Part shown: positions 1 to 49,857 of the stretch, in pieces
How the letters are laid out: each line of letters begins with the position of its first letter
Numbering within the stretch: position 1 is the stretch's first letter
DNA from: Candidatus Zambryskiibacteriota bacterium
GTDB taxonomy: Bacteria; Patescibacteriota; Minisyncoccia; Phycocordibacterales; WO2-35-19
Length of the DNA stretch: 64,000 nt
Assembly: GCA_043799105.1 (NCBI GenBank)
Contig: JAZDOB010000012.1
Span: forward strand, 1,620 to 65,619
Direction of reading: 5' to 3'
Position numbers and translations under genes: made by a program
Notes under the pieces: model-generated
The model's input: only the letters and a program-made list of their open reading frames with translations
The model's database searches: none
Told to the model about the DNA's origin: nothing

Positions 1-782
1 ATTTCGCCAATTTTTGCCCCCTTTAATCCGGCTTTTTCAATCAGCTCTCCGGCGTAAATTTTTTTGTTGTTTATTATTGGATTTATAAAATATGAACCGG
101 CATTTGGAATAATTTTTGGGTTCGGCAACTTGTTTCTTCTTATTTCTATGATGGCTTCTCGGATTTCTTTTAAAGTGGGGGAGTTATTGTTTTTTTGTTC
201 AAAATACTCTTCCACACCTTTGTATTTTGGCATCTTTGGTTTTTCTTTTGAAAGTTTGAGAGTAGTTAATATTACAATAAAACGATCTGGATATTTTTTA
301 AAAAAGCTATTTCTGTACCCAAACTGACATTCTTTTTTGTTTAGAAAAACGAACTCCTTTTTTGTTTTATCGTAAGCTTCAACATCTTCCAAACAATCAG
401 CAATTTCGGAGCCGTAAGCGCTAATGTTTTGAATTGGAGCAGCACCGCTTTTGCCGGGGATGGCCGAGAGGGCTTCAATACCCGACAAATTATTTTCCAC
501 GGAAATTTTCACAACATCATCCCATTTTTCTCCGCCCTCGATTTTTATCTGGTTGCCATTTATCTCGGTTCCTGCAGAATCCAAGATGGCTACCACGGCC
601 TTGACATAATCACGCAATATAATATTTGTGCCTTCTCCTATGACAATAAGGGGCAGACCTTCTTTTATCGCCAGATTATTTATTTCCAAAATCTCAGATC
701 TTGATTTTATTTTTGCTACGAAACTGGCTACTGCCGGAATAGCCAGGGAGTTGGGAACAGCTGATTCTCTATCCACAATCAT
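1..782 (-). CDS. murB: UDP-N-acetylenolpyruvoylglucosamine reductase MurB, C-terminus cut by window edge
   Basis: Absent from the ORF track because it runs off the left edge. My reverse-strand translation from ATG(782) gives MIVDRESAVPNSLAIPAVASF..LIVIGEGTNIIL..LSGIEALSAIPGKSGAAPIQNISAYGSEI..CQFGYRNSFFK, matching the MurB FAD-binding domain motifs. Plus-strand ORFs 64..704 are shadows of it. Confidence 0.85.
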   Translation of the reverse strand, partial: MIVDRESAVPNSLAIPAVASFVAKIKSRSEILEINNLAIKEGLPLIVIGEGTNIILRDYVKAVVAILDSAGTEINGNQIKIEGGEKWDDVVKISVENNLSGIEALSAIPGKSGAAPIQNISAYGSEIADCLEDVEAYDKTKKEFVFLNKKECQFGYRNSFFKKYPDRFIVILTTLKLSKEKPKMPKYKGVEEYFEQKNNNSPTLKEIREAIIEIRRNKLPNPKIIPNAGSYFINPIINNKKIYAGELIEKAGLKGAKIGE

Positions 783-792
783 ACTTTTATTA

Positions 793-810
793 TATATCAC
801 ATATGATATA
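793..810. promoter_or_regulatory. Perfect 7-4-7 inverted repeat TATATCA-cata-TGATATA in the 36-bp murB/murA divergent spacer; candidate operator overlapping -10-like hexamers on both strands
   Basis: Read directly from the sequence. TATAAT lies at 807..812 on the plus strand, and ATTATA at 789..794 reads as TATAAT on the minus strand. Each is about 6 nt from its ATG. Confidence 0.5.
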
Positions 811-818
811 ATTTATTT

Positions 819-2342
819 ATGAAAAGCGGGGATAACCAAAAAGCCATAGGAAGTTTCATCAAAAAACTTCGCGAAAAACGCTCTCTTACCCAAGAAGAGT
901 TGGCTGAGAGACTCAAAACATCTCAAAGCGCTATTGCCAGAATAGAAAGCGGAGGACAAAATTTGACTGCAGGAGAGTTGCTGAAAATAGGGGACGCTTT
1001 GGAGCATAAGATTGTTTCCCTTTCCGATTCGATAGATTTTAAAATTCATGGCGGCAAAAAACTAAAAGGGATGATTAAAACCAACGCCTCAAAAAATGGT
1101 GCAATGGGACTTTTGTGCGCCTCTCTTTTAAACAAAAGCACCACTATACTCTATGGCATACCGAGAATTGAAGAAGTAAACAGAATGCTGGAAATTTTTT
1201 CCGGTTTAGGAGTCAAATGCAGATGGCTGGAAAGACAGACTTTGGAAATTGTTCCTCCCCAAAAATTTAAAGCAGAGGGGCTAATTCACAATGCCGTGGC
1301 AAGCGTCAGATCAAGTCTGATGCTTATTCCTGCTGCCGTCCATAATCTTAAAAAATTTTCATTACTTCACACCGGTGGCTGTAAAATGGGCGAAAGAACG
1401 ATCGCCGCCCACCGTTATGCTCTTGAAAATTTTGGTATCTTTATGAAGACCCAGAGCAATAGATATATTATCTCCTCTAAGTCTCTTAAACCGGCAAACA
1501 TTGTTATGTATGAAGCGAGCGATACGGCAACAGAAAATGCAATTATGGCCGCAGCTCTGATACCGAGAATCACCAAAATATCCTTCGCTCCGCCCAACTA
1601 TCAGGTTCAGGAAGTCTGCTTTTTTCTTGAAAAATGCGGGGTAAAAATAGACGGTATAGGCACCACCACTCTCCTGATTCATGGTGTGAAGAAAATAAAC
1701 CAGAAAATTGAATATTACAATAGCGAAGATCCGATTGAGTCAATGATGTTTATAAGTGCCGCCATTACAACAGGTTCCAGACTAAAAATAGAGAGATGCC
1801 CCATTGATTTTTTGTCCCTAGAATTAATCAAGCTCAAAGCTATGGGTTTAAAGTATAAAATTTCAAAAGAATATCTTGCCTTAAACAAAAATACAAAACT
1901 CGCAGATATAACGATATTTCCTTCGAAGCTGAAAGCTCTACGAGACAAAATACATGCCCAGCCTTATCCGGGCATTAATTCTGACAACTTGCCGTTTTTT
2001 GTACCTATTGTGACTCAAGCCGAAGGCACCACTCTCATACACGACTGGATGTGGGAAAACAGAGCAATTTATTTCACCGAGTTAAATCGCCTCGGGGCAA
2101 ATATAACACTGGCTGATCCTCACCGCGTTTTCATAAACGGGCCGACAAATTTAAAACCGGCACAGGTGGTTTGTCCTCCGGCTCTACGGCCGGCCATGAT
2201 AATTCTCATTGCTATGCTTGCAGCTCCCGGTATTTCAATTTTAAGAAACGTCTATTCTATCAACCGTGGCTATGAAGATGTTGTTTCTCGTTTAAACAGC
2301 ATCGGTGCTTCTATTGAAAAAATAACGGATGTCCAAAATTGA
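819..2342 (+). CDS. murA: XRE-type HTH domain fused to UDP-N-acetylglucosamine 1-carboxyvinyltransferase (MurA)
   Basis: Residues 1-65 form a Cro/C1 HTH (IKKLREKRSLTQEELAERLKTSQSAIARIESG). The rest is a full MurA/EPSP-fold enzyme (KIHGGKKLKG..ASKNGAMGLL..; catalytic loop LHTGGCKMGERT retains the Cys). Confidence 0.9.
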   Translation: MKSGDNQKAIGSFIKKLREKRSLTQEELAERLKTSQSAIARIESGGQNLTAGELLKIGDALEHKIVSLSDSIDFKIHGGKKLKGMIKTNASKNGAMGLLCASLLNKSTTILYGIPRIEEVNRMLEIFSGLGVKCRWLERQTLEIVPPQKFKAEGLIHNAVASVRSSLMLIPAAVHNLKKFSLLHTGGCKMGERTIAAHRYALENFGIFMKTQSNRYIISSKSLKPANIVMYEASDTATENAIMAAALIPRITKISFAPPNYQVQEVCFFLEKCGVKIDGIGTTTLLIHGVKKINQKIEYYNSEDPIESMMFISAAITTGSRLKIERCPIDFLSLELIKLKAMGLKYKISKEYLALNKNTKLADITIFPSKLKALRDKIHAQPYPGINSDNLPFFVPIVTQAEGTTLIHDWMWENRAIYFTELNRLGANITLADPHRVFINGPTNLKPAQVVCPPALRPAMIILIAMLAAPGISILRNVYSINRGYEDVVSRLNSIGASIEKITDVQN

Positions 2343-2384: not shown

Positions 2385-2570
2385 ATGACAAACCATATCG
2401 ATCTCAGTAAAGTTGTTTTGGATTATTTTCTCGAGACTGGCACGCTGTATCCGGATGTTCTGAAGCTGGATGTTGGTGTGATTGAGGAACTCATCGACGC
2501 CATTCCGAGCGGACATCCTGGACTCATCGCTCAGTTGGTGGGGTATTTACAGAAAGAAGGAGTATGTTGA
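2385..2570 (+). CDS. small hypothetical protein (61 aa)
   Basis: AGGAGG lies 6 nt upstream of the ATG. It overlaps the next gene by 7 nt (coupled). No recognisable motif. Confidence 0.35.
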   Translation: MTNHIDLSKVVLDYFLETGTLYPDVLKLDVGVIEELIDAIPSGHPGLIAQLVGYLQKEGVC

Positions 2571-3307
2571 AATACAAAGAACATGTTTTTATGGATAGGC
2601 CGATACCGGACTTGTCTGATTTTAGATCAGACGAGTCTTTCTATCGGAATTATCCTATTTATCCAACCGACGAGGCGTGTGTAAAAGTAAACAACACGCT
2701 TCTGTGTCAGAGCTACTACTGGTATTATAATCCGAGACCAAAAGGAGCAATGGAACAGATCTTTCTGAGGAAAGAATTAATCTTCAGACTCATCAGAATC
2801 GACAAGGAACTCCGTCTTTTAGGTCTTCGTTTGTTGATTCAGGAGGGGTACCGACCCCTTTCTGTCCAGCGCTTTGTCCAGGAAGTTTCTGTATTTAAGG
2901 GGCTTAAGAAAGAAAATCCTGGCCTTACGGATGCAGAACTTCAAGAAAAAGTCAGGATGTTCGCTACTTCTGTTAATGGAGATTTTCGTCGGTATCCACC
3001 ACCTCACCTTACGGGTGGGGCTGTCGATTTGACCATTGTCTATGTGGAAAATGGCGAACAGGTTGATATGGGCAAGAAAGGGGGGTTGTATAACACGGCC
3101 TTTCCTGATGCTCTAGAAAGACAAAACCCGGGAGAGTTTGAGGGGGCGAAACGCTTCAGACGTCTTCTCTTCTGGCTTGCTTCTACAGAGCAGATGGCTA
3201 TGAATCCCACCGAATGGTGGCATCTTTCTTGGGAAGATCAGATGTGGGCGTGGGTCACCAAAGCGCCATTCGCGACATATGGTGTTGCGGAAAATTTTAT
3301 TCGGTGA
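2564..3307 (+). CDS. D-alanyl-D-alanine dipeptidase, VanX/DdpX-like (peptidase M15D)
   Basis: Carries the zinc/active-site signatures HLTGGAVDLT and EWWHLSW typical of VanX-family dipeptidases. AAGGAG Shine-Dalgarno upstream. Confidence 0.75.
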   Translation: MLKYKEHVFMDRPIPDLSDFRSDESFYRNYPIYPTDEACVKVNNTLLCQSYYWYYNPRPKGAMEQIFLRKELIFRLIRIDKELRLLGLRLLIQEGYRPLSVQRFVQEVSVFKGLKKENPGLTDAELQEKVRMFATSVNGDFRRYPPPHLTGGAVDLTIVYVENGEQVDMGKKGGLYNTAFPDALERQNPGEFEGAKRFRRLLFWLASTEQMAMNPTEWWHLSWEDQMWAWVTKAPFATYGVAENFIR

Positions 3308-3355: not shown

Positions 3356-4759
3356 TTGCTGTATTATAAAAAAATGGAATTGAAAGATAAAAAAGTTTTG
3401 TTAATGGGACTAGGCTTGTTGGGTGGCGGTGTGGCTACTGCACGCTGGCTTGTAGAGCGGGGAGCCGTTTTGACCATAACAGACATGAAAGACGAAGAAT
3501 CGCTGAAACCTTCTATTGAAAAACTAAAAGAATACAAAAGTAAAATAAAATATATTCTTGGTAGACACGAAGAAAAAGATTTTTTGAATAACGATATTAT
3601 TGTTATAAATCCGGATGTTCCGGCGAACAACAAATTTGTTGAATTGGCGAGAAAAGCCGGTAAACAAATTGAAAACGAGCTTACTCTCTTTTATAAATTT
3701 TGTCCAAGCCGAAAAATTGTGGCAGTGACGGGTACTAGAGGAAAAACTACTACTGTAAATTGGATAGCTCACTTTCTTAAATCTGGGAATCCGAACACTT
3801 TAGTTATAGGCAACACACCAGAAAAGCCATTTTTGCAGGAGATAAAAAAATGCAATGCCGATACGCAAGTTGTTATAGAAGCGCCCTCTTTCCAATTAGA
3901 AATCTGTAGTGAATCTGAATTTGCTCCACATATTGCTGTCATCACAAATTTATACAGAGATCATATAAATAGGCACAAAAGCATGGAAGAATATGCAAAA
4001 GCCAAGAGCAATATTTTTAGACACCAAAAAGAAGATGATTTCCTTATTTTAGACAAAGAAAATGAGTGGACTAATTTTTTTCTGGCTCAAAAACCAAAAT
4101 CAAAAATACTGTTTTTTTCTGAAGAAAATTTAATCATAGATAAGAATGAATTTATAAAGCTTTGGGGAGAGCATAATTTGCAAAATTTTGCCACTTCTTC
4201 TTTGGTGGCTCTCACTTTAGGGATTTCTCCCGAGGAAATAAAAAAACAGATATCAAGTTTGCCTCAAATAAAATTCAGGCAGGAAAAAGTTTTTGAAAAT
4301 GAGAGATTGTCTATTTACAACGATACTACATCTACTTCTCCTGAAGCGCTAACTGCGGCCATGGAGAGATTTTTATCTGATGGGGAAAAGGCTGTTTTTA
4401 TCAGTGGTGGCACCGACAGAGAATTGGATTATAGGAAATGGGCTGAAACTGCCCAAAAACTCATTAAACCCGAGAATCTGATATTATTATCAGGCAGTGC
4501 CACGGAGAAAATGAAAAAAGAATTGGACGGGGATAGTTTCAATGAGTTCAACAGTCTTGAAGAATGTTTCAAAAAAGCTTTGGAAATTGTAAAAAAAGCC
4601 CCCACTTCGCTAAAGCTTCCCGCCCGAACGCTTCAGGCGGGCAGGCGCGGGGCAAGCAAGATCATTTTTTCACCCGGAGCAAAAAGCTTTGAAAAATTTA
4701 AAAACGAGTTTGACAGGGGTGAGCAGTTTAATTTACTAGTGAATAAATTATTGAAATGA
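3356..4759 (+). CDS. murD: UDP-N-acetylmuramoylalanine--D-glutamate ligase
   Basis: N-terminal Rossmann motif KKVLLMGLGLLGGG and the Mur-ligase P-loop VAVTGTRGKTTT. An alternative start is M7 at 3374. Carries an in-frame repeat insertion near 4600..4655 (APTSLKLPARTLQAGRRGAS). Confidence 0.9.
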   Translation: MLYYKKMELKDKKVLLMGLGLLGGGVATARWLVERGAVLTITDMKDEESLKPSIEKLKEYKSKIKYILGRHEEKDFLNNDIIVINPDVPANNKFVELARKAGKQIENELTLFYKFCPSRKIVAVTGTRGKTTTVNWIAHFLKSGNPNTLVIGNTPEKPFLQEIKKCNADTQVVIEAPSFQLEICSESEFAPHIAVITNLYRDHINRHKSMEEYAKAKSNIFRHQKEDDFLILDKENEWTNFFLAQKPKSKILFFSEENLIIDKNEFIKLWGEHNLQNFATSSLVALTLGISPEEIKKQISSLPQIKFRQEKVFENERLSIYNDTTSTSPEALTAAMERFLSDGEKAVFISGGTDRELDYRKWAETAQKLIKPENLILLSGSATEKMKKELDGDSFNEFNSLEECFKKALEIVKKAPTSLKLPARTLQAGRRGASKIIFSPGAKSFEKFKNEFDRGEQFNLLVNKLLK

Positions 4760-5589
4760 CAAACTATTGTTTTTTGAACGGAAAAATTTTGCCTCTTGAC
4801 GAGGCGAAGGTTGGAATAGAGGACATCGGCCTTCTGCGAGGCTATGGCATTTATGACGGGATAACAGTCGTCAATGGGAAAGTTTTTCATTTTGCCGACC
4901 ACTGGAATAGGTTTGTTTCCGGGGCTCACATGCTCAATCTGAACATTCCTATTACAGAAGAAAAAACCGAGAAAGTTATTAAAGAGATAGCCGAAAAAAG
5001 CGGGCTGAAAGAAAGAGCAAACATAAGGGTGATTTTGACGGGAGGAAAAACCGTAAATGGCATTGAATATGATTTTGAAACTCCGACATTTTATATTATT
5101 GCCGAAAAATGGGAGCCGCTCCCCGAAGATTTTTACAAAAATGGAGCCAAACTCATAACTTACAAACATGCGCGGGAAATGCCGGAAGTCAAGACAATAA
5201 ATTACGTCAAAGCTGTTAATTTGCAGAACTGGAGAAAAGACGAAAAAGCTGTGGAGATACTTTATACGTATGATGGAGAAGTCTTGGAGTGTGCCACATC
5301 CAATATTTTTGTTATCAAAAACAAGGTTTTAATAACCCCGACAGAAAATGTCTTATCCGGTATAACAAAAAAAGTGATATTAAAAATCGCAGAAGGGAAA
5401 TACCAAATAGAAGAAAGACCAATAAAAGAAGAGGAACTTAAAACAGCCGATGAAATCTTTATAACATCTTCTTTTAAAGATATTGTGCCGATTGTCAAAA
5501 TAGATGATTTTGAAGTGGCAAATGGCAAGGTTGGGTCGATTACAAAAGATTTGATGGGGGAGTTTGCAAAAGTTCTAAATATAGGTTAG
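4756..5589 (+). CDS. class IV aminotransferase (D-amino-acid / branched-chain aminotransferase family)
   Basis: Fold-type IV pattern: GLLRGYGIYDGI, ITGGK-like LTGGKT, KTINYVKAV and SNIFVIK. A 4-nt overlap with murD suggests a D-Glu supply role, which is inference. Confidence 0.75.
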   Translation: MTNYCFLNGKILPLDEAKVGIEDIGLLRGYGIYDGITVVNGKVFHFADHWNRFVSGAHMLNLNIPITEEKTEKVIKEIAEKSGLKERANIRVILTGGKTVNGIEYDFETPTFYIIAEKWEPLPEDFYKNGAKLITYKHAREMPEVKTINYVKAVNLQNWRKDEKAVEILYTYDGEVLECATSNIFVIKNKVLITPTENVLSGITKKVILKIAEGKYQIEERPIKEEELKTADEIFITSSFKDIVPIVKIDDFEVANGKVGSITKDLMGEFAKVLNIG

Positions 5590-44006: not shown

Positions 44007-45026
44007 TTGGGTATGACATTTTTTTCTAAAAAGCTAGGCATTGATTTGGGCACAGCCAATACCTTGGTTTTCGTGCCGGGCAGAGGGATAGTTTTAAACG
44101 AGCCCTCCGTGGTTGCTATTTCTCTTGAAGACAATAGAATTCTGGCGGTGGGCACCGAAGCCAAAACTATGATAGGGAGGACCCCGGAAGCTATTGTGGC
44201 TTACAGACCGATGAAAGACGGAGTAATTGCAGATTATAAAGTAACGGAAGCCATGCTTTCTTACTATATGAAAAAAGCTTTGGGCGGTTGGAGTTTTATA
44301 AAACCGGAAGTACTAATTAGTGTGCCGGCCGGAGTGACTTCTACCGAAAGACGAGCAGTGATAGAAGCTGCGATTAAAGCTGGAGCCAAAAATGCTTATG
44401 TGATCAAAGAACCAATCTTGGCAGCTATCGGTGCCGGTATCCCTATTTATGAAGCCAAGGGGCATATGATAGCCGATATCGGCGGAGGCACTACCGATGT
44501 GGCAGTCATTTCTTTGGGGGGTATCGTCTCGGCCATTTCGGTCAAATGTGCCGGCAACAAGATTGATGAAAGTATTATTGATTACATAAAAAAAACTTTT
44601 AATTTGGCGATTGGAGATAAAACGGCCGAAGATATAAAAATAAAAATAGGATCAGCCTTGCCCATAGATGAAGAACTTTCTCTGTTCATAAAGGGTCGAG
44701 ATTTAATTTCCGGTTTGCCGAGGTCGGTTGAAATTAAAACCAATGAAATAGTGAAGGCCATTTCCCGGGAATTACGGGAAATAATAAAAGCTATCAAAGA
44801 TGTCTTGCAGGAAACTCCACCCGAGCTTGCCGCGGATATCATAGATTACGGCATTATTATGACTGGCGGGACTTCCGCTTTGCGTAATCTTCCGGAGTTG
44901 ATTTTTAGAAGGATTGGAGTAAAAGCTATTATGGCAGAGGATCCTCTTTATTGTGTCGCCAAAGGCACCGGCATCGCTTTGGAACATCTGGGCGCTTATA
45001 AGAGAACCATAATTGCCAAAAGATAA
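44007..45026 (+). CDS. mreB: rod shape-determining protein MreB (paralog 1)
   Basis: LGIDLGTANTLVFV, VISVPAGVTSTERRA and IADIGGGTTDVAVISLGG. Confidence 0.9.
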   Translation: MGMTFFSKKLGIDLGTANTLVFVPGRGIVLNEPSVVAISLEDNRILAVGTEAKTMIGRTPEAIVAYRPMKDGVIADYKVTEAMLSYYMKKALGGWSFIKPEVLISVPAGVTSTERRAVIEAAIKAGAKNAYVIKEPILAAIGAGIPIYEAKGHMIADIGGGTTDVAVISLGGIVSAISVKCAGNKIDESIIDYIKKTFNLAIGDKTAEDIKIKIGSALPIDEELSLFIKGRDLISGLPRSVEIKTNEIVKAISRELREIIKAIKDVLQETPPELAADIIDYGIIMTGGTSALRNLPELIFRRIGVKAIMAEDPLYCVAKGTGIALEHLGAYKRTIIAKR

Positions 45027-48789: not shown

Positions 48790-49857
48790 ATGTTCAAAGA
48801 AAAATGGGAGGAATGGATGCGTATTTTGCGCAATGATATAGGCATTGATTTGGGGACAGCCAATATGCTGGTCTATGTTCGTGGCAAAGGGATTGTGCTA
48901 AACGAGCCCTCGGTGGTCGCGGTAAATCAAAAAACGGGGCAAGTTGTAGCCGTCGGAACAGAAGCAAAAAATATGATTGGCCGGACGCCACCACATATTG
49001 TTGCGGTACGGCCCATTGTTGACGGAGTGATTTCTGATTTTGAAGTGACGGAAGAAATGCTTCACTATCTTTTAAATAAAGCTCAAACTGTATCAAAAAA
49101 GATTTTAGGGCCGAGAGTGGTGGTGGGAGTACCTTCCGGCATCACTAATGTGGAAACCAGAGCAGTTCGAGATGCTACCAAAAATGCCGGAGCCAGTGAA
49201 GTACACATAATTGAAGAACCTATGGCAGCTGCAATCGGAATGCATTTACCCATAGAAGAACCGCTTGGCAATATGGTTATTGATATAGGGGGAGGCACAG
49301 CGGATATTGCCGTTATTTCTTTGGGTGGAGTCGTAAGTTCCAAAAATATACGTATAGCCGGGGATAAATTAAACAACGATATCGCTTCCTATATAAGAAG
49401 TGAATTCAAAATAGTGATTGGAGACAAAACTGCCGAAGATATAAAAATATCCATCTGCTCCCTTTTGCCGGAAGAAAATCTCATTGAGACTCAAGCCAGA
49501 GGTCGGGATCTTATCACCGGATTGCCGAGAGAAGTGGCGGTTACCGATTCTGACGTGAGAGATGCCGTATCGCACTCTATTGAAAGATTGGTGGAGGCCA
49601 CTAAAGAAGTATTGGAAATTACCCCGCCGGAAATACTCTCCGACATTATGCATCGTGGTATCCATTTAGCTGGCGGTGGAGCCCTTATGAAAGGATTTGC
49701 CAAGGTTTTGGAGAGAGAAATAAAAATGCCTGTTTACATTGCCGATGACCCCCTGACTTGTGTGGTTCGTGGCACCGGTATCATTTTGGAAAAGCTCGGA
49801 CAATTTAAAGATATATTAATTGCTGACGAAAATGACATTTCAAATAAAACACACTAA
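48790..49857 (+). CDS. mreB: rod shape-determining protein MreB (paralog 2, heads the mreBCD-mrdA operon)
   Basis: IGIDLGTANMLVYV, VVGVPSGITNVETRA and VIDIGGGTADIAVISLGG. An alternative start is at 48817. Confidence 0.9.
   Translation: MFKEKWEEWMRILRNDIGIDLGTANMLVYVRGKGIVLNEPSVVAVNQKTGQVVAVGTEAKNMIGRTPPHIVAVRPIVDGVISDFEVTEEMLHYLLNKAQTVSKKILGPRVVVGVPSGITNVETRAVRDATKNAGASEVHIIEEPMAAAIGMHLPIEEPLGNMVIDIGGGTADIAVISLGGVVSSKNIRIAGDKLNNDIASYIRSEFKIVIGDKTAEDIKISICSLLPEENLIETQARGRDLITGLPREVAVTDSDVRDAVSHSIERLVEATKEVLEITPPEILSDIMHRGIHLAGGGALMKGFAKVLEREIKMPVYIADDPLTCVVRGTGIILEKLGQFKDILIADENDISNKTH

Follow-up and report, generated by a model that had tools for sequence, protein, structure and literature searches.

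A MurA enzyme fused to an XRE-family DNA-binding head: a candidate trigger enzyme for early peptidoglycan genes in Patescibacteria

Why should MurA, the enzyme of the committed step of peptidoglycan synthesis, carry a DNA-binding domain? This question is raised by HTH-murA, an open reading frame (ORF) in a 64,000-nucleotide stretch of contig JAZDOB010000012.1 from a Candidatus Zambryskiibacteriota bacterium (the window), which encodes an XRE/Cro-type helix-turn-helix (HTH) domain followed by a MurA body. Transcriptional control of the committed step is poorly understood; in the bacteria studied, MurA is controlled mainly by proteolysis or feedback inhibition. A literature search, which included a 2026 review of peptidoglycan regulation, returned no description of an HTH-MurA fusion. 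The explanation that best accounts for our data, to which we assign a probability of about 0.72, is that HTH-MurA is a dimeric trigger enzyme: the sole MurA of the cell, tethered to an XRE head, would repress early peptidoglycan genes through an 18-bp palindrome.

A sequence-only reading of the locus had proposed a Cro/C1 HTH at the N-terminus, running without a stop or frameshift into a complete MurA with its Cys loop and Lys motif. Family models recovered both domains: HTH_3 (Pfam) matched residues 14–61 (E = 2.9e-12; 46.9 bits, cut-off 23), and EPSP_synthase (PF00275, Pfam) matched residues 77–491 (E = 4.7e-47). The protein passed the MurA subfamily model NF006873 (NCBIfam; 315 bits, cut-off 297) and missed the cut-off of the MurA equivalog model TIGR01072 (303.2 bits, cut-off 392.7). 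In a search of solved structures, the top matches were all MurA (best 5u4h, E = 1.7e-46), with NikO next (1.7e-24). The protein contains SLTQEELAERLKTSQSAIARIESGGQNL, the Cys loop GGCKMGERT (Cys188) and SKNG (Lys92-Asn93). The frame is continuous across the domain boundary, here as in more than 100 protein clusters and 82 fused loci.

Those clusters, retrieved by protein search, comprise proteins of ~505 aa with 65–90% identity and the same two Pfam domains, under names that include Candidatus Zambryskibacteria, Parcubacteria and Patescibacteria, among others. All 82 related fused loci examined had the HTH-MurA architecture; they come from separate assemblies, some of them complete single-contig genomes, and represent Zambryskibacteria-like Paceibacteria, Saccharibacteria, Uhrbacteria and the cultured actinomycete Nonomuraea. 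Exact matches carry source names such as Candidatus Microsaccharimonas, Saccharibacteria, Uhrbacteria and Nomurabacteria. The fusion is thus distributed across a large part of Patescibacteria, plus Nonomuraea. The sequence-only reading had contrasted it with a MurA lacking any DNA-binding domain, which holds for the studied enzymes but not for Patescibacteria, where the fused form is widespread and has gone unremarked: public databases hold it annotated merely as MurA or as "helix-turn-helix domain-containing protein".

Conservation extends to both parts of the protein. Orthologues agree almost as well in the HTH as in MurA (mean identity 58% versus 63%; linker 31%), and one close pair gave ratios of nonsynonymous to synonymous substitution rates (dN/dS) of 0.025 (HTH) and 0.040 (MurA), most dS values being saturated. 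The fusion is conserved and, as these sequence comparisons indicate, its HTH is under purifying selection. Across 74 fused sequences, the invariant HTH residues (R18, Q25, Q36, S37, R41, E43, G45, Q47, N48 and L61) are mainly polar and lie on and after the recognition helix, while K92, N93, C188, R193, D389, R415, R457 and R483 are invariant in MurA. The genome of the window (G000; 543 kb, 32 contigs, 88% complete) yielded a single PF00275 match, HTH-murA itself, which is therefore its sole MurA homologue; of the later Mur steps, murB, murC and murD are present. Judged from sequence and as part of the overall explanation, HTH-MurA is probably the cell's housekeeping UDP-N-acetylglucosamine (UDP-GlcNAc) enolpyruvyl transferase.

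The putative operator, TATATCA-N4-TGATATA, sits nine bases 5' of ATG819. Overlapping it, an extended −10 element, TGaTATAAT, stops 6 nt short of the same ATG, as expected for a leaderless-type promoter, and on the minus strand TATAAT stops 6 nt short of the murB ATG at 782. A sigma-70 scan of positions 600–1000 gave no −35/−10 pair in the 36-bp murB/HTH-murA spacer, so the promoter reading depends on an extended −10 identified by visual inspection. The whole spacer, start codons of both genes included, is quasi-symmetric (17-nt arms at 779–795 and 806–822, 76% complementary), the ATGs of murB and HTH-murA being mirror images about the palindrome dyad. In the 543-kb genome, this palindrome is the only site with ≤2 mismatches, and 4-mismatch matches are no commoner than in shuffled sequence. 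A 3-mismatch site at C6:908, between a PemK toxin gene and an ORF of unknown function, was treated as chance.

To follow the palindrome and the HTH together, we oriented 89 loci of the MurA type to which HTH-MurA belongs (class A, defined below; 62 fused, 27 HTH-less) and searched the 200 nt upstream for the 18-mer TATAKCATATATGMTATA. It was found with ≤4 mismatches upstream of 62/62 fused loci, 57 of them with ≤2 mismatches; none of the 27 HTH-less loci had a site with ≤2 mismatches. The gap between site and ATG clusters at 8–12 nt and 29–36 nt. The exact half-site pattern occurred in 46/201 genomes of the order, which by a hand tally comprise ~36 of ~60 fused genomes versus ~10 of ~141 others, the latter mostly with off-consensus centres; a reversed-pattern control matched 2/201 genomes. 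A tree of the MurA domain only (89 class A and 6 class B sequences; quick IQ-TREE search, with the root resting on class B) recovered class A as one clade (100*) with unfused basal branches and with HTH-less rows nested repeatedly among the fused ones, well-supported branches forcing at least 8 changes. When fused and unfused members were paired independently on starred branches, the operator accompanied the HTH in 8/8 pairs (sign test p = 0.008). Heads, operator and linker position are homologous throughout, so a single gain with repeated subsequent loss appears the simplest history, the direction of change being inferred. The sequence-only reading had suggested a substrate-sensing autoregulator or a moonlighting enzyme. 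Its idea of an autoregulator has thereby gained strong comparative support: the palindrome sits at the promoter of HTH-murA itself, occurs once in the genome, appears to track the HTH through 8 independent losses and recurs elsewhere.

One HTH-less MurA, at L071 (G005), is the sister of a fused one and has a 3-mismatch remnant, TATATTTCATATGCTATA, 29 nt upstream, in which the promoter half is retained and the left half-site has decayed. Genomes with a head-less MurA were also searched for a stand-alone HTH; they gave weak XRE matches only (best 51% identity over 56 residues, G176) and none in G005 and G178. A split into separate HTH and murA genes in these genomes thus found no support.

Sites also occur at other peptidoglycan genes. 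In the genome of the window, a single site serves both the murB-murC and the HTH-murA-...-murD units. Three genomes of the order have an additional site 8–10 nt ahead of the start codon of a MurC-type ligase gene (murC), two genomes have an additional one upstream of a PF00144 penicillin-binding protein (PBP)-like gene, and a Saccharimonadia genome has a separate site 10 nt before murB. Among fused loci at greater distance, at least five have mreB as the divergent gene on the other side of the site; mreB was identified by Pfam in four loci and by the MreB N-terminal motif in several others. In most of the remaining fused loci the upstream ORF is divergent and approximately as long as mreB. One-mismatch sites in Saccharimonadia beside AAA_18, thioredoxin-reductase-like, tRNA-synthetase and EngA genes were regarded as coincidental or ambiguous, the murB site alone matching the pattern.

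An AlphaFold2 model of HTH-MurA (predicted local distance difference test (pLDDT) 90.3, predicted template modelling score (pTM) 0.83) comprises four HTH helices (4–20, 25–32, 36–43 and 51–60), a low-confidence linker at residues 61–70 and the MurA body. Among solved structures, the HTH domains closest to this one bind DNA as dimers: the restriction-modification (R-M) controllers C.Esp1396I and C.BclI, HipB and a designed DNA-binding protein. Prediction of two copies gave a score of 0.65 versus 0.00 for the best control, a mark reached by 20/30 proteins solved as pairs and by 1/23 solved as single chains; contact agreement between runs was ≥93% and partner pLDDT ≥87. The predicted symmetric interface lies in the MurA body and does not involve the HTH. 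It is formed by residues 192–200, 229–233, 374–385, 408–410 and 432–436, beside the Cys loop and close to where substrate binds, and includes the class-A-specific W410, H435 and insertion 374–385. As a prediction, this lends support to a putative HTH-MurA homodimer.

In the proposed mechanism, the XRE/Cro head would be permanently tethered to MurA by the short flexible linker, and two copies joined through their MurA bodies would place two heads on two half-sites with centres ~11 bp apart. The palindrome would cover the −10 elements of back-to-back leaderless-type promoters, for murB-murC on the minus strand and for HTH-murA-dipeptidase-murD-aminotransferase on the plus strand, and the bound dimer would occlude RNA polymerase at both. 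The level of MurA protein would then feed back on transcription of murA, murB and murC, and elsewhere on that of mreB; relatives in which murC, murB, mreB or a PBP-like gene lies at another place have a separate copy of the site there. That the predicted binding would repress rather than activate we infer from the position of the site on the promoters. By analogy with the trigger enzyme BirA, control by a ligand such as UDP-GlcNAc, phosphoenolpyruvate (PEP) or UDP-MurNAc (UDP-linked N-acetylmuramic acid) can be envisaged as a speculation. Because the predicted dimer contact adjoins the Cys loop, near the substrate-binding region, the protein might act as a flux sensor, in which UDP-GlcNAc/PEP or the feedback ligand UDP-MurNAc shifts it between an enzyme-active form and a DNA-binding dimer; we hold this idea tentatively and think it more probably wrong than right. 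If true, it would constitute a one-protein homeostat for peptidoglycan precursor genes and mreB in genome-reduced Patescibacteria, and a direct link from metabolite to transcription at the committed step of wall synthesis.

How far does the palindrome itself argue for binding by the HTH? It might instead consist of opposed extended −10 elements, or be the site of another factor, with an HTH that is vestigial or binds other DNA. Both half-sites have the TGnTATA(A/C)T form of a classic extended −10, the upstream gene is divergent in 49/59 fused loci, and in such loci the palindrome certainly doubles as −10 elements. The full dyad is nevertheless kept in the 10/59 loci with a co-directional upstream gene; in other taxonomic classes it occupies the spacer and −10 of a unidirectional TTGACA promoter, with the left half-site within the spacer; and upstream of the Nonomuraea gene, in ~70% GC DNA, ATCTCA-N4-TGAGAT ends 12 nt before the ATG (chance expectation 0.04 per locus). 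These cases speak against a palindrome made up of no more than two opposed promoters. Opposed −10 elements would also be expected at many promoters of the genome, which has a single site, and this alternative sits poorly with HTH-less sister genes that have no palindrome and with a head that is under purifying selection and invariant in its recognition-helix residues. The dyad is absent in L126 and L141 (other taxonomic classes), where the recognition helix has diverged. On balance, we regard this alternative as unlikely. Several observations nevertheless count against the trigger-enzyme explanation. The right half-site doubles as an extended −10 (TGnTATAAT) that the left half mirrors, so that in divergent loci opposed promoters could account for part of the palindrome. 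Class A lineages have shed the HTH on at least 8 occasions, so it is dispensable. A small number of fused loci (L139, L142) have no good site. The Ser or Thr before the invariant Gln agrees with operator position 5/14 (T:A or G:C) in 25 + 21 concordant cases, a covariation with no statistical weight because the tree shows just 2 such changes. The MurA enzymes studied so far are considered monomeric. Finally, G118, a genome of the same order, has 20 identical copies of TATATCATATATGATATA (L104–L109, L010), some between convergent genes, which fit a simple operator poorly; their flanks prolong the dyad with A-runs and T-runs, and the copies could reflect spread of the operator sequence in the manner of repetitive extragenic palindromic (REP) elements, or a greatly enlarged regulon.

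The remaining alternatives concern the protein. The HTH could be a RodZ-like protein-protein module that docks MurA to MreB and the elongasome instead of to DNA, as the mreB genes divergent from HTH-murA in at least five of the loci checked might suggest, along with the lack of any RodZ-like protein above the Pfam cut-off in the 88%-complete genome (the best match being an ordinary XRE ORF broken by a contig end) and a weak match of the head to the RodZ-type family HTH_25 (E = 0.0067). That match (16.7 bits) falls below its cut-off of 24.6, as against 46.9 bits for HTH_3, and RodZ is absent among the solved relatives of the HTH at E ≤ 0.01. MurA follows the HTH directly, with no membrane segment, the mreB of this genome is 43 kb distant and has no palindrome, and docking would leave a palindrome gained and lost together with the HTH unexplained; we consider this option more improbable still than that of opposed −10 elements. 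Nor is it at all likely that the MurA domain has ceased to be an enzyme and serves solely as a ligand-sensing effector domain, for which there is a precedent in BzdR (PMC3602430). The clade is divergent, below the equivalog cut-off, and Ala455 (of CPPALRP), invariant in class A, aligns with E. coli Asp369, where class B keeps D-[IL]-R. Against a purely sensory role, however, HTH-MurA is the only MurA homologue of a genome that retains murB, murC and murD, one match is the rule in the fused genomes of the order, the HTH-less members of class A are likewise the single MurA match of their genomes, and Cys188, Lys92, Arg193, Asp389 and Arg483 never vary among the 74 sequences. An assembly or gene-calling artefact, or translation starting only at the MurA domain, is scarcely credible. 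A few 440-aa homologues without the HTH exist, but they form separate lineages on the MurA-domain tree; no support for an artefact was found, no internal Met is conserved at the domain boundary, and the continuous frame recurs in independent clusters and loci, complete single-contig genomes and cultured Nonomuraea included. A tethered repressor that remains the cell's MurA is thus the explanation we prefer.

The features of the locus are collected in Table 1. The neighbours listed by the sequence-only reading proved correct, its VanX-like gene being the M15 D-Ala-D-Ala dipeptidase. A 61-aa ORF between murA and murD (region 2385–3307) overlaps the start of the dipeptidase gene. The window also contains two mreB paralogues (44028–44996 and 48832–49806), with no palindrome upstream of either.

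Table 1. Features of the HTH-murA locus, in window coordinates unless a contig is named.
Feature	Position	Strand	Remarks
murC	G000:C19:1379-147, just past window start	−	Downstream of murB; from genome neighbours
murB	3..782	−	Divergent from HTH-murA
TATAAT	789..794	−	Read from sequence; overlaps left edge of palindrome
18-bp palindrome TATATCAcATATGATATA, putative operator	793..810		7-nt arms, 100% complementary, 4-nt spacer
Extended −10 TGaTATAAT	804..812	+	Read from sequence; overlaps right half-site of palindrome
HTH-murA ORF (P0001)	819..2342	+	Open frame, 507 aa
XRE/Cro-C1 HTH domain	846..1004 (residues 10-62)	+	Pfam match, predicted structure, conservation
Recognition helix of HTH	924-947 (residues 36-43)	+	Predicted structure
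Linker, ~10 residues, flexible	1005..1034 (residues 63-72)	+	Low pLDDT, low orthologue identity
MurA (enolpyruvyl transferase) domain, divergent class A clade	1035..2324	+	Family models, PDB matches
M15 D-Ala-D-Ala dipeptidase	2564-3307	+	Downstream, co-oriented with HTH-murA
murD	3356-4759	+	Downstream, co-oriented with HTH-murA
Class IV aminotransferase	4756-5589	+	Downstream, co-oriented with HTH-murA

Whole-genome searches in the order of the window distinguished two MurA types. Class A, defined as ≥50% identical to the HTH-murA protein, is mostly fused, with some members lacking the HTH; class B is canonical MurA, ~30% identical to class A and never fused. An order-wide search found one MurA per genome as a rule, of either class A or class B, and this patchy pattern suggests replacement by transfer. 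Class A was present in 42/401 sampled genomes of the taxonomic class and in 68/401 sampled genomes of the phylum, ~45 of the latter fused. Its hallmarks are Ala at the E. coli Asp369 position, CPPALRP, LIHDW and an insertion of ~8 residues. The Nonomuraea (Actinomycetota) cluster contains 246 sequences at 90% identity, its representative being 47% identical over the full length. The orthologue shares the recognition helix and the class-A motifs, adjoins a phage-type integrase and is probably a horizontally acquired extra MurA. In Nonomuraea sp. NEAU-A123, HTH-MurA lies at L153:3971-5530, and the GC-adapted dyad CATCTCATATGTGAGATA overlaps the end of the upstream gene.

If the preferred explanation is correct, one protein is both an enzyme and a regulator of murA, murB, murC and often mreB, in a fused form carried across a large part of Patescibacteria, including Saccharibacteria, with genomes well below 2 Mb. 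The candidate operator and regulon are defined enough for immediate in vitro work, and cultured Nonomuraea carries an orthologue.

Compared with canonical MurA (E. coli/Enterobacter cloacae; PDB 1uae, 1ejc), HTH-MurA shares the fold, and Lys22/Asn23, the Cys115 loop, Arg120, Asp305, Arg331, Arg371 and Arg397 align; it differs in its low identity, the ~8-residue insertion, CPPALRP and LIHDW, the Ala at the Asp369 position and the N-terminal HTH. Its organization recalls known trigger enzymes. BirA of E. coli is both biotin-protein ligase and repressor of the bio operon, and binds as a dimer to an inverted repeat overlapping divergent promoters; its corepressor and the effect of that ligand on dimerisation are known. 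PutA and NadR are other trigger enzymes with an attached DNA-binding domain. By analogy, HTH-MurA would likewise unite in one polypeptide a pathway enzyme and a predicted repressor of pathway genes, and we found catalytic and HTH domains in one chain and sites at murA, murB, murC, mreB and a PBP-like gene. BirA differs in having a winged HTH, as opposed to the XRE/Cro type of HTH-MurA, and in its enzyme and pathway.

The head itself resembles those of phage 434/P22-type repressors and R-M C proteins, with which it shares the signature T-(S/T)-Q-S...E-x-G-x-Q-N and a 14–18-bp dyad on its own promoter, with half-site centres about one helical turn apart. Those proteins dimerise via the HTH or a small C-terminal extension, whereas in HTH-MurA the HTH is followed by an enzyme of 430 residues, which also contains the predicted dimer contact. 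XRE regulators typically autoregulate via palindromes in their own promoters (PMC12565409). The closest parallel in domain order is BzdR of Azoarcus sp. CIB, in which an XRE-type HTH and a linker precede an effector domain derived from shikimate kinase that has lost catalysis and only binds the effector (PMC3602430). The BzdR-type model NF006015 (NCBIfam) matched residues 8–71 of HTH-MurA (E = 3.9e-6), and the two proteins share the N-terminal HTH family and the order HTH-linker-enzyme fold. Unlike BzdR, HTH-MurA keeps all catalytic residues checked, except at the Asp369 position, and is the only MurA of its cell. It thus resembles the still-bifunctional intermediate that was built artificially in the BzdR study (PMC3602430), and may be a naturally occurring case of the stage, an enzyme joined to a DNA-binding domain, from which regulators such as BzdR have been proposed to originate.

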